DNA of 20,000 bases from Peribolospora baueri (Eukaryota), in the NCBI GenBank assembly GCA_029717555.1, contig JAMDHS010000100.1, positions 51,024 to 71,023 of the forward strand, given 5' to 3'. Below the pieces are notes generated by a model. That model did not search any database, had not been told where the DNA came from, and saw only the letters and a program-made list of their open reading frames with translations. Each line of letters opens with the position of its first letter. Within the stretch, counting starts at the first letter, position 1. A program made the position numbers and the translations under genes. Positions 15,739-20,000 of the stretch are shown here, in pieces.

Positions 15739-16661
15739 GAGTGCACTGTACTCTCGACCGCCAGCTTCCGAAAGGTGATTAATCATTATAGGCCGTGGTG
15801 GCGGCGGTGGATTGTGGAGGTTAGAGTTAGAAAGGCGGACCTATGAGCATGGATCGGGCAGGGCATGTACACATGTAGTTACCGCATACCTGGACGGCAA
15901 CGTCGGCCACAGCAAGCCTTCAGCTTATCTGTCGCAGAAGGAACGAGATCTCCCTGCTCTCCATGGCAGCCGTCAAATCGCACTCTTCCAAGACTGACTG
16001 GCGTGAAGCGATTCACTTGTCGTCCATGATTACGCTCCACTTTGCCCGGTCCCGACACGGGGAGGTAGGGACAATCAATAACAATATAGTGGCTTTAGCG
16101 AGTCCTGTCGTTGGGATGGGGAGCGATAGCAGCGACGGGGGAGGAGGAGGAGGAAGAGGAGATGGGAGACATGGACGCCACCGTTTTTCTTTTCCGGGGG
16201 CGCTGGCGATGGCGCGGACGGACGGACGAGTTGTTCATCTTACCGCAGCATCCACGTGCTTCCGTTGCCGCAGCCAGCCGCTGGTCGACGAGAGGGGGAA
16301 GCTAGCAGTGCGATTTTCATCACGCACACGATCGTCCGTTCGTCCACGATGATGACCCCTCCAACGCAGCGCGCGCCGCGACCCTCCTTTTGTTCTCGCC
16401 AAGGTTGGTCGCCGCTCGTCTGTCGCACTTAGTCTTCTCAGCCGGCCCATGCGCATGGCATAGCTTCAAAGGCAAGTAGGATCTGATGGCATTACATTCG
16501 GCTGGCATTTGACCGTCCTCTTGGTGTTCGACCATCCTCGCGCACACCCTCGCGCTCTGTCACCATCTCTCGTTAGCACCGGCCGGGAAAATCTTAAGAA
16601 AAACACAAGTTTGCTAACTGCGCATCATATGCGCCGAGCCTCCTTTCATAAACTGATACGA

Positions 16662-16829
16662 TCATACGCCCTCCGTGAGACCGGCACGAGTTTGCAGAGC
16701 GTTTTACAGGTCGCTGACGTGCTTGGACCGATTGGGATATGTCAGGTTGACCGCCTGCCGCAGGCTCGAGATAGAGGCCTCGAGGTCGTCCAGATCGCCG
16801 AGGCACTGATATCGCGTGTCCAGCTGTGA
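16662..16829 (-). pseudogene. Relic fragment (~1.3 units) of a fungal TPR repeat of the type found in TPR-CHAT proteins
   Basis: A minus frame absent from the ORF track reads SQLDTRYQCLGDLDDLEASISSLRQAVNLTYPNRSKHVSDL*NALQTRAGLTEGV*. This matches the repeat consensus as I recall it (R...G.L.DLE.AI...RQAV.LTP..HP.R...L.NLGNAL..R), with an in-frame TAA at 16704-16706 and a short deletion. Confidence 0.7.
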
Positions 16830-17151
16830 TGTGACCGGCCACTGTGTGACGGTTTTGCACTCATTCAGCTAGTTGGCACCATTACATGGCGACACCAGCA
16901 GGGTTCTCGGACTCCCTTTGTGCTTTATAACCTCGTAAAGGCACCACTCTGTTACCCGCCATAGTGACGGAGACTGAGCTCCGCTAGGCGGCCGCCCTTA
17001 CCGTTCACCGGGACGAAAGAGGTCACCAGAGCCCCGTTTCCCCCGAATACACGAGCCAGCTTCTCGTGACGAACTACGACGACCAGTAACGATCCAGCCA
17101 CGAACTGTGACGACCGAACCACAAAGCAGCCGAGCGTTCATAGCGACGTTG

Positions 17152-17192
17152 TTTTTTCTTTGTTTTTCTTTTTCTTTTTCTTTTTAATTTTT
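17152..17192. repeat. T-rich tract (A-rich on the minus strand)
   Basis: ttttttctttgtttttcttttctttttctttttaattttt. Confidence 0.8.
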
Positions 17193-17317
17193 CGATGTTG
17201 GCTCCTCAAACAAGATCTACCCGTAAGAGGCCCGCGAGTTCACCGAGTGACCTCTCGAACCACTCGGAGATGGAGACTCCCGCTCCTCACTAGTCTCACT
17301 GTGCTCCCTACGAAGGT

Positions 17318-17324
17318 ATATAAA
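17318..17324 (+). promoter_or_regulatory. TATA box followed by a long CT-rich leader
   Basis: gTATATAAAgg, then a pyrimidine-rich stretch ~17333-17500, the usual layout of a fungal core promoter. Confidence 0.55.
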
Positions 17325-17596
17325 GGGCTCGCATTCTCCTCTCAGCTGTAGTTAAATCCCTCATTCGTGAATTCCTTCCCCGATCCTTATCCCCATCCTC
17401 GAATCCTTTCCCTCTCTACCCAACCCCGATCCTGATCTCCTTTAGCTTCCCTATCTCATTCTCATCTTGACTCTTACCTCGTTCCCATCTGGACCTCGTT
17501 CCCATGAGGACCGACCCGATCCAACCTGCTCAAAAGCCTTCGCATTTCTCTCCGAGCACACTTCCAGGGCCTCAAATACAAGGTTGGCACCCTGAT

Positions 17597-17647
17597 GGCT
17601 GCCTGACGGGCCCTCGGGCGAAACAGCAAAAGCTTTCTGTCGCAGCT
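17597..17647 (+). ncRNA. Type I hammerhead ribozyme (A9G core variant)
   Basis: Stem I 5' GGCUGC (17597-17602); core CUGACGG (17603-17609); stem II GCC-CUCG-GGC (17610-17619); GAAA (17620-17623); stem III CAG-CAAAAGCUUU-CUG; UC with predicted cleavage after C17641 (GUC triplet); stem I 3' GCAGCU (17642-17647). Confidence 0.8.
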
Positions 17648-17693
17648 TGCTCTTTCTTCTCGTGGGGCTTCGTTTTTTGTCCACAGCAACTTC

Positions 17694-17781
17694 ATGGCCA
17701 CCTCCAGTTGACGACAAAAATCTTAACCCTCGATAAAAGCCGACCTCCGGCTCTCTCCCACCCCTTCGGCGCCCAATGACC

Positions 17782-17817
<36 letters not shown>

Positions 17818-18272
17818 CCGTCCAACGCCATAATAAGCGTCTCGCAGTCGACCCCCTAGGGGAGGAAGACCTGGTGAACAGCCTAGCTGTATCCCACTTA
17901 GAGACACCCCCCTCTTTCCTTGAAATCTACAAGGAGCACGTTGCTGCCTACACCAGCAACGTGTCGAGGGTCCTTCGCGCACAGGCTGGCATCGCCGAGC
18001 TGGAAACAGCGAAAGCCACCGGGGTTTATCCTCCAGCGATCGCCAACGCAGTCAAACTGCCTCCTATCCAAGTTTCAGGCTTTGCTCGACCCCATATCAG
18101 GGAAGACATTGCCTCTGAAAGCTCTGATATGGAGATAGCGGCCCACGCATGCCGAACTACTTTTCTGGATAAACTCATTTGGGTCAGGCGAAAGGAGGTC
18201 GAGCTCCTCACCTGTCTACAAACGGAGGAGAAAGTCGTACAGCAGCCTCCCCTGGATAGATCTCTTGTTTGA
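17694..18272 (+). pseudogene. Disrupted ORF downstream of the hammerhead; probable N-terminal part of a Penelope-like retroelement ORF
   Basis: ATG 17694 is in frame with ORF 17874-18272. Stops occur at 17709 (TGA) and 17721 (TAA); the frame is then open through the poly(C) (poly-Pro) into ELETAKATGVYPPAIANAVKLPPIQVS...FLDKLIWVRRKEVELL. No RT motifs are visible. The family call is inferred from the hammerhead context and recalled similarity. Confidence 0.5.
17783..17815 (+). repeat. Poly(C) homopolymer, 33 nt (poly-G on the minus strand)
   Basis: Direct count of consecutive C residues. Confidence 0.95.
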
Positions 18273-18750
18273 CGCGTTGAAGAAGTCACCGAGGCTACGC
18301 GTCTGTCAGGGAGGACTTCCCTACTCAGGTCGGGTCACGAGCGAGGGACGGAGGGCGGAATGGAGGTCCACCGGAAGTCGACGCAAAGCAAGGAGCAGGC
18401 AAGTCGGGGACAAGGACGAGCACAGGAACGAGGATGGGGCGGAGGCTGGGACGGAGGTACTGATGCTGGACGGGGAACTCTGGAGGAAACCTGAGCGGTG
18501 ACAAAAGTATTCTTAGCTTGGGGAGGAAAGATGCGGACGACACACACACACACATGCGAAGAGCTCGATCACCCACCGTTGAAAGCCAACATTTTAAGGA
18601 GGCACTTTGAATGCATATAAAGTACATAGATTGGTAGAGGAATAATAGAAGACCATGAAAGCGAAATCCGAAGCAAAAGCAAGAGAGAAAAAGCAGAGTT
18701 ATAAGCGTTTGAAGTTTGGGCGGATAAATTTTGTTTTTGTAATGGCTGCG

Positions 18751-19008
18751 TGTAACACGCGGATCGTTTCGGCACTGTGATGAACGTCCGCCGATTGACG
18801 TCGTGTACGAAGTAGGTCGACAAGGGCAAGGTTGCAAGGTCAAGGAAGATCAAGGCAACAAGGTATCAAGGTGAACAAGGCTAGGAACATGGACAAAGGG
18901 ACAAGGACGGGGAGCTAGAGCTAGGTACCAGAACACGGGAGCTAGGAACTATGGAGCACGCGGGTCTTGGACGGGCTTCAGGAGTGTGCGACGACGCGAC
19001 GCGTTACA
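18751..19008 (-). mobile_element. LTR-like element, 258 bp, termini TGTAAC...GTTACA
   Basis: Terminal inverted repeat TGTAACACG vs TGTAACGCG (8/9 match), TG...CA ends, and internal short repeats (CAAGG, GAGCTAG). A purine tract GAGGAGGG lies just upstream on the minus strand. The flanks (CTGCG / GACGC) are not a target-site duplication. Confidence 0.6.
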
Positions 19009-19022
19009 GACGCGCACCCTCC

Positions 19023-20000
19023 TCAGGACCGGTTAGGGAGATGCCCAATACGCTGCACCGCTTGGTCGTAAATTTTTTGAGCCTCTTCGTCGGTGAGCAG
19101 TCGTGACGGCAGCGCCCATGTCAGCGCCATCGCAGCCTCCATCTCGGGGCACCTCGGCATTCTTTCCGCCAACATCCTGACCCAATCCGGCGGCCCGTCG
19201 CCCACAGTAGTGATCAGTTTACAGCGCTCCCACCAAGCAGGCAGGAACCCGCTAGTTTCCCAGTCCAGGATGCAAGAAATCGATTTGGACTCCTGGTCGA
19301 ACTGAATGTTGTACGGCCCGAGATCGCCGTGCGTCATGACGAAGCGCGTACGATCCTCCGGGTTCTTGTCCAGATGCCTAGCGTGCAGCTCCCTCACAAC
19401 CGCAGCAGTAACCGCATCGACGCCGGCATAGACAATCATCTGGTTCAGAAGTTGATCCGCCTGATTGTCGCCAGTGAAGCGAAGAAATCGGCCTTGTTTT
19501 GTGAGGTACCCCTCTTGAAGCGGGCTGTCGTCGGGACTGCAGATCTTTCCTGACGTCAACTGCCTCACTTCGCGCAGATGCTTCCATGTTTCGTCGACAA
19601 CGGCCCTCTTGCATCTCTCGTCCATGGATATCCACGGGTTTGGGTCGATAAGCTTGACGCCCTCCACTATTCCACTCGGATAAAGCTTGACGCCCTTGGC
19701 CTGCTTCATCAGAATGAAATGTCTCTTGGCCTTGTCGCTGTGCCATCTCAGAAGGGTGTCTGGCACGGGAACAGACGTCTTCGCCTTGATGTACTCGATG
19801 ATCCCTTGCTCGGCGGGTGCCACCGTCCTTGAGGACGACCTGGCCATGGATTGAAATTACACACCGCGACGATGTACGATGGACGCACTCGACGTGGCCC
19901 GCGAGCGGGTCGTACGCGTCGAGCTCGCGGATGAACGCTCGACTCTCGGCCGGGTCTTTTGGGAAGAGATCCAAGATGGACGGATCCGGGCCAGAGATGG
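19023..20000 (-). pseudogene. Intronless APH/choline-kinase-like phosphotransferase, frameshifted near 19812-19830; 5' end outside the window
   Basis: ORF 19847-19023 carries E..IEYIKAKTSVPVP, FILM, FVMTHGDLGPYNI (Brenner motif) and ILDWETSGFLPAWWE. The N-lobe strand RCVISIHGQVVLKDG is in a different frame, which stays open to the window edge. No room for an intron between the two frames. Confidence 0.8.

Follow-up and report, generated by a model that had tools for sequence, protein, structure and literature searches.

Results

A patchwork of repeat pieces at the end of a contig

The window, by which we mean the whole 20,000-nucleotide stretch of Peribolospora baueri DNA that was analysed, is the last 20 kb of contig C1 in an assembly of 22.7 Mb and 668 contigs. 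When the genome was searched with 17200-18700, the resulting matches (50 among the best 40 of 62 candidates) sorted into blocks with sharp ends, and homology broke sharply at 17506, 17592, 18246, 18304 and 18539. Between the second and third of these breaks, at 17593-18246, lies what is very probably an inactive, rearranged fragment of an endonuclease-less Coprina-type Penelope-like retroelement (PLE), and the PLE material in the window amounts to about 710 bp out of a unit of ~3.27 kb. The stretch had been described, in an earlier note made from the letters alone, as one promoter-ribozyme-ORF unit. What lies there is a dead scrap of an element among unrelated repeat pieces: neither the TATA box nor the leader belongs to it, the start codon was misassigned and the second reading frame is an artefact of a junction.

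On the left, the forward-strand block at 17283-17505 contains the TATA box that had been noticed, TATATAAA at 17317-17324, and the CT-rich stretch, which reaches 17505. Both lie outside the PLE: they are absent from all copies of the element, and the copies with sequence upstream of the ribozyme carry the end of the reverse transcriptase (RT) there. The sole other genome match of this block is 17421-17501 against C405:151422 (78%), which is followed some 130 nt further on by a remnant of weak gag-like character (Ty3_capsid, with an E of 0.035 that misses the cut-off). In two sequencing runs of a second organism, 17283-17498 and 17283-17487 occur as a separate piece on contigs that have neither neighbour. 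The block is probably a piece of the LTR or leader of an LTR retrotransposon.

The next block, 17506-17592 on the forward strand, is an 87-bp piece from the 5' part of a TPR-repeat gene family. It recurs with 92-98% identity and the same ends on six contigs (C117, C113, C104, C318, C131 and C57), where TPR repeats directly follow the match, and its orientation is sense with respect to its gene and matches that of the main PLE piece. A decayed TPR-repeat gene remnant, 77-78% like C656 and C241, is also found further left at 16326-16824 on the minus strand. We considered, and rejected, the idea that the TATA box and leader are an inverted promoter of this remnant: the 87-bp piece is 98% like the C117, C113 and C104 genes and the remnant ~76%, and those three genes are preceded by other DNA. 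Between the remnant and the TATA block, a further decayed repeat has left pieces at 16853-17035 and 17199-17282; they are collinear with C635:350628-351103 and also match C583.

To the right of the main PLE piece, 18247-18304 is an inverted (minus-strand) 58-bp piece from the C-terminus of the RT/thumb of the same PLE family, identical at 58/58 positions to C113 and at 57/58 to C95 and C77. It corresponds to positions 1944-1997 of the C12 copy, and its normal place is ~180 nt upstream of the ribozyme. It is followed at 18304-18539, again on the minus strand, by the 3' half of a Ty3/gypsy (chromovirus-like) LTR, found over 200 bp or more in at least 19 other places with the best 40 of 49 candidates scored. 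The full LTR in C45 comes after a chromodomain-like frame and a purine tract. In the window the LTR piece starts 23 nt behind the position of the LTR's TATA box, ends exactly at the LTR 3' end and is joined to a (CA)n run, a shape that is also seen at C21:30051 and C637:423. Such a shape would fit either captured strong-stop cDNA or a solo LTR cut by deletion.

The remainder, 18540-20000, is a repeat with an APH-family kinase ORF (Pfam APH E 1e-7). This phosphotransferase-like ORF spans 277 aa at 19023-19856 on the minus strand, and the repeat is also found on C383, C21 and C359 and, more diverged, on C96, with telomere arrays on two of these contigs.

The central piece very probably belongs to a Coprina-type PLE family

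The central piece, taken as 17598-18246, matches C12, C37, C472 and C77 at 78-94% DNA identity. The C-terminal part of the RT lies upstream of the ribozyme in C12, C641, C306, C95 and C113, and in C37 the ribozyme is followed by the window's peptide and then by the DKN motif and RT. The homologues could have turned out to be ordinary single-copy host genes with neither RT linkage nor a hammerhead, as the earlier note allowed; in this genome they are linked to both a PLE RT and a hammerhead. Summed from C12 and C37, the unit is ~3.27 kb long and has an ORF of ~1000 codons that runs through an N-terminal region, DKN, RT and thumb, with no GIY-YIG, and is followed by a short 3' region (the C12 frame ends about 60 nt ahead of the ribozyme). 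On the evidence of the profile match, DNA identity and reading frames, the window's 17776-18246 (forward strand) holds the first ~155 codons of this ORF, and the window copy is unable to encode an RT. The absence of the RT, for which an internal deletion or a retrozyme-like parasite had been suggested, follows from the fragment's end at 18246 and not from an internal loss that spared the 3' end.

Pieces of the family are found on 19 contigs (weakly on C273, C84 and C394), with a 35-bp tail on C383 besides. The proposed search for full-length copies thus gave homologues that do continue into a PLE RT, but none of the copies located in the assembly is intact and full-length. Each of them is broken or truncated, and C37 and C12 jointly cover profile positions 40-996 in order. 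Copy number was likewise split, with family pieces on about 20 contigs but the window's arrangement itself in one copy among the matches listed. Three loci, L116 (C61), L119 (C661) and L122 (C637), represent older subfamilies of the same PLE, 68-77% identical; in the C637 subfamily the hammerhead is still recognisable, with changed core and cleavage letters.

The C641 frame has RT motifs and gives RVT_1 alone in Pfam (E 1e-7). With the RT tail of C12 as query we obtained 42 protein matches, including proteins of Microbotryum and Phenoliferia, which are the closest named relatives of the retroelement protein; on this ground we take the host to be a basidiomycete. A midpoint-rooted tree of 44 rows, drawn without named Coprina, places the two copies from this genome in a clade of 31 rows (100/97), in which the 29 remaining proteins stop within 48 aa of the aligned tail, and groups them within it with the Microbotryum and Phenoliferia proteins (96/86). 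PF01541 marks two of the 42 matches as GIY-YIG-bearing, and both fall outside this clade. According to PMC8557442, Coprina is present in Microbotryum.

A profile was then built from 26 full-length PLE proteins (at least 930 aa) chosen by RT alone, with P0032, P0038 and P0040 omitted as likely endonuclease-bearing. The window frame matches its positions 41-153 with 44.6 bits (E 7e-15), and the remaining 17.5 kb of the window scores below zero. The suggestion that the peptide resembles the N-terminus of basidiomycete endonuclease-deficient Coprina-type PLEs is borne out by this match, and the segment it pointed to has a counterpart in the alignment consensus. Neither of the window's two frames gave anything significant in Pfam; the N-terminal peptide matched 0/756 candidates among longer proteins, and against 1.84 billion representatives it gave two matches near E 1e-3, both to repetitive proteins and taken as chance. 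The search of solved structures returned none for the single RT and weak RT matches for the profile (TERT, E 0.25).

A recognisable but probably crippled hammerhead

The ribozyme that had been reported is present. A type I hammerhead of the PLE occupies 17593-17647 on the forward strand, as judged from the fold, a descriptor and the alignment of copies; the fold itself runs from 17598 to 17646, with the GUC cleavage triplet at 17639-17641, so that the cleaved RNA would begin at 17642. Stem I pairs 17598-17602 with 17642-17646, the core continues at 17603-17609, stem II is formed by 17610-17619, stem III pairs 17623-17626 with 17637-17640, and cleavage would follow C17641. With a stem-checked descriptor run over both strands of the window, 17598-17646 was the single match; in dinucleotide shuffles an equally strong match arose in 0/200 and any match in 6/200, with the descriptor loosened post hoc to accept G at position 9. 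Since a loose hammerhead pattern matched at chance level (13 matches against 13.9 expected), we count only the stem-checked descriptor. An Rfam scan of the window gave no match up to E 1, minimum-energy folding did not yield the hammerhead fold, and folding z-scores were not significant (-0.4 to -1.1 for the core, +0.7 with flanks). A search for a second ribozyme or a tandem repeat in the window found none.

The window ribozyme has G at core position A9 (17609), where 8/8 other aligned copies have A, and it is without the upstream arm that lengthens stem I in other copies. A9 is a conserved base of the hammerhead core, and a change there strongly lowers cleavage. Judged on these letters, the window ribozyme is therefore probably crippled; a literature search on the cleavage effect of an A9 change gave no usable paper. 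The ribozymes of C12, C95, C113 and C306 bear other lesions, and the ribozyme-bearing copies were all copied through an intact cleavage site.

A donor-like site lies near the end of the RT ORF, kept in C12, C37 and C117 and altered in C104 and C113, and a candidate acceptor, a pyrimidine run with CAG ahead of the short upstream ORF, lies at 17684-17686 of the window. The two could bound a candidate intron of ~200 nt holding the ribozyme (L033:8685 to 8488 in C12); if an intron spanning the ribozyme were spliced, the mRNA would be spared cleavage. In Penelope and Chlamys, according to PMC8557442, an intron of the 5' UTR spans the pLTR border. Two metagenome relatives have a TATA-like box ~6-10 nt before the ribozyme core (L159:2247-2266 and L165:1040-1052), which would place the transcription start within the ribozyme.

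The start codon and the second frame

The ATG at 17694, proposed as the start of a long frame, exists and is accompanied by the two early stops that had been noted, at 17709 and 17724, but what it opens is a 5-codon upstream ORF (17694-17711, forward strand), as reading frames and the alignment indicate, and not the PLE ORF. The upstream ORF is 23 codons long in C37; in C12 and C472, as in the window, it has 5, and the letters of its stop codon show no variation in 9/9 aligned copies. The ATG equivalent to 17776 shares the frame of the ORF in C12 and C37 but not in the window or in C472, the closest relative of the window copy. In the window a run of C, 33 nt long (17783-17815), separates this start codon from the ORF frame, and the run may be mis-sized in the assembly. 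The stop-free frame itself spans 181 aa at 17727-18272.

A second frame of 120 aa does exist at 18139-18501, but there is no switch of coding character to it at 18240-18270, as had been thought: element homology stops at 18246. The frame is made up of out-of-frame PLE ORF, then the inverted RT tail at 18247-18304, then the LTR half, so that 18304-18539 is the source of most of it. Compared with the 42 PLE proteins it gave nothing better than E 0.099.

Telomeric junctions and chromosomal position

The host telomere consists of TTAGGG arrays. In this family a reverse telomeric motif, the priming site, lies about 115 nt after the ribozyme core, with the next unit starting beyond it; in the window the copy alignment places it at 17716-17730 on the forward strand, with two C-to-T changes. 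Six of nine aligned copies stop at the motif with CCCTAA followed by unrelated flank; four of them share one flank, and the six represent three independent CCCTAA junctions. C137 and the divergent C637 copy likewise finish in CCCTAA units. The window copy, like C12, C37 and C472, passes the motif into the start of the ORF and ends at an arbitrary site.

The 5' ends of C95 and C61 are directed at telomere arrays on the same contig. C37 lies 1.35 kb from a telomere array but reversed, C77, C472 and C33 are interior, and the window copy is near its contig end and reversed, with its 3' side pointing to that end. The right-hand repeat of the window has a 97% copy (C383:1133-2599) that lies 1.1 kb from a telomere (C383:1-104). 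As the window's own contig ends at a repeat, its position is judged from such paralogues: it is likely to be subtelomeric, and a chromosome end is probably near.

Two further observations concern telomere-near loci. At L046:379-413 (C383) a 35-bp element tail with three telomeric units is inverted with respect to the telomere 275 nt away and adjoins an LTR start. In L040, L042, L043 and L044 (C117, C104, C95 and C113) one PLE 3' junction occurs with four flanking variants; it has TPR-repeat genes on one side and WD40-repeat (NLR-like) genes on the other, on C95 its distance to a telomere is 5.5 kb, and we regard these flanks as duplicated chromosome ends rich in repeat-domain genes.

Related RTs were found at 11 metagenome loci, nine of which were scanned: a hammerhead core lies downstream of the RT in 5/9, and three of those five have a CCCTAA motif or array 106-120 nt further on. 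In the other 4/9 no ribozyme core was found within 1.6 kb of the RT end (one of these contigs ends after 176 nt).

Discussion

A new family of a known kind

The Coprina clade of endonuclease-deficient Penelope-like elements was reportedly described by Gladyshev and Arkhipova in 2007. Like Coprina, the present family combines DKN, RT and thumb without GIY-YIG, in an ORF that, pieced together from C12 and C37, is probably single; Athena has two ORFs. The family's hammerhead adjoins the reverse telomeric motif, its 5'-truncated copies join at CCCTAA and its host is probably a basidiomycete. The window copy itself differs from Coprina in being a fragment without RT, in the direction of its 3' side, which faces the nearer contig end, and in its tail-to-tail inverted piece, and at least three of the DNA-level matches (C77, C472 and C33) sit, unlike Coprina, 59-122 kb inside long contigs. 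The region from stop codon to ribozyme is ~60 nt here, against about 0.5-1.2 kb in four of the metagenome relatives. A hammerhead beside a reverse telomeric motif is documented for both Coprina and Athena in PMC8557442, PMC4209133 and PMC13159263. We regard the family as a new Coprina-type family, of a kind already known, and the supplements of PMC4209133 and PMC8557442 may already list it or a close one.

With the type I hammerheads of fungal PLEs, as presented in PMC4209133, the window ribozyme shares type I topology, a stable helix III and location in the pLTR region; it differs in its G at core position 9 and in the lost upstream extension of stem I. The same paper reports that the type I hammerhead of a Serpula lacrymans PLE is active as a monomer.

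How the mosaic may have arisen

In the mechanism taken from the literature, RNA of the family would anneal through its reverse telomeric motif to the TTAGGG overhang of a chromosome end that is eroded or broken; extension of that end by the RT would then leave 5'-truncated copies with a CCCTAA 3' junction. The window copy is not a clean terminal addition of this sort. Its left end lies a few bases ahead of the ribozyme and its right end at 18246, with short foreign pieces on both sides, 87 bp from a TPR gene and 58 bp of RT tail in inverted orientation. The most likely course is that break repair and ectopic exchange, in a repeat-rich and probably subtelomeric region, reduced a tandem or read-through copy to this remnant, and a single C113-like locus may have supplied both short pieces. 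C113 is the sole assembled locus with both, in the polarity seen in the window (a shared polarity being an event of 50% chance), and C113, C117 and C104 seem to have arisen from one another and from the C12 flank by deletion or exchange; for these two reasons we favour DNA templates. The five joints share 0-3 nt of sequence. The joint between the LTR half and the right-hand repeat is also found in C21 and C637 and therefore predates the PLE piece. A comparison of L044:936-2635 (C113) with L034:839-2103 (C12) reveals that the gene flanking the C12 copy on its 5' side is represented by four shuffled pieces, 96-98% identical, at the 5' end of the C113 copy.

In the main rival account the whole mosaic would be one integration, in which a break-primed PLE RT jumped among LTR strong-stop, PLE, TPR-gene and LTR-leader RNAs. 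Short pieces with so little sequence shared at their joints would suit such jumps, as would the TPR piece, which is sense to its gene and oriented like the main PLE piece; strand switches occur in four loci without a telomere-motif junction (C1, C77, C472 and C33), and template jumps, capture of host DNA and break priming have been proposed for PLEs in PMC3846280. We nevertheless hold a single integration to be rather unlikely: the joint of the LTR half with the (CA)n run predates the PLE piece, the 58-bp piece is antisense to PLE RNA, one DNA locus contains both short pieces, and reshuffling of this family at the DNA level is evident elsewhere. A broader and more speculative proposal, for which we see a small chance, makes the endonuclease-less PLE RT of this fungus a general break-patching enzyme, capable of non-telomeric priming, read-through of ribozyme junctions and template jumps, with the window as a multi-template patch. 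Uncleaved or circularised ribozyme junctions would then be read through to give circularly permuted copies of sub-unit length such as C12 and C37, and pieces of host TPR-gene and other transposon RNAs would be stitched into repeat-rich regions with NLR-like genes. In PMC3846280, priming at double-strand breaks is already stated to be possible for PLEs without an endonuclease, and PLE copies that are permuted, inverted or carry captured host DNA are described there, so neither DNA patching nor template jumping would be new in kind. Our literature search, thin on subscription journals, found no paper on circularly permuted hammerhead PLE copies, interstitial Coprina or strong-stop capture.

Short-read assembly of a repeat-rich region could also have manufactured the joints. 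The repeat at the contig end overlaps a 213-bp contig by 127 bp, among the matches listed from four public runs no contig piece spans the whole stretch, and the suspect length of the C run points the same way. Set against this, one public contig, from a run that may be that of the source sample, agrees with 15868-17535 at every position and extends 30 nt beyond the 17505/17506 joint, one short of what was counted as bridging. The window copy also carries substitutions of its own, and the 127-bp overlap exceeds the 58-bp piece in length. We hold an artefact to be very improbable. No empty site was seen in the public contigs, and no RNA run was listed with the sequence.

Least probable of all, to the point of being barely credible, is a functional non-autonomous unit or retrozyme-like parasite, as the earlier note had it, with a foreign promoter, ribozyme and short ORF mobilised in trans. 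A good TATA box, oriented like the ribozyme, does lie ~280 nt upstream of it, making transcription possible, and non-autonomous PLE derivatives are known from PMC8557442 and bioRxiv 10.64898/2026.07.22.740005. The non-LTR retrozymes and non-autonomous PLEs of these sources (MRC1 in PMC8557442) likewise have a PLE-derived type I hammerhead without a nearby RT. Unlike them, the window offers no tandem array, no second ribozyme and no family of equal-ended copies; the arrangement occurs once among the genome matches listed, its parts come from at least four unrelated sources, and it combines the core substitution with a degraded priming motif and the absence of an in-frame start.

Significance

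As it stands the meaning of the finding is modest: one more Coprina-type family, in a basidiomycete, and a window that shows how a patchwork of repeats can imitate a promoter-ribozyme-ORF cassette. Two questions raised in the literature, the role of the PLE ribozyme and the access of endonuclease-less elements to interior sites, could be addressed with this family as a compact natural data set. If template jumping proved true, break repair and the reshuffling of TPR/NACHT genes would both be linked to a telomerase-like RT.
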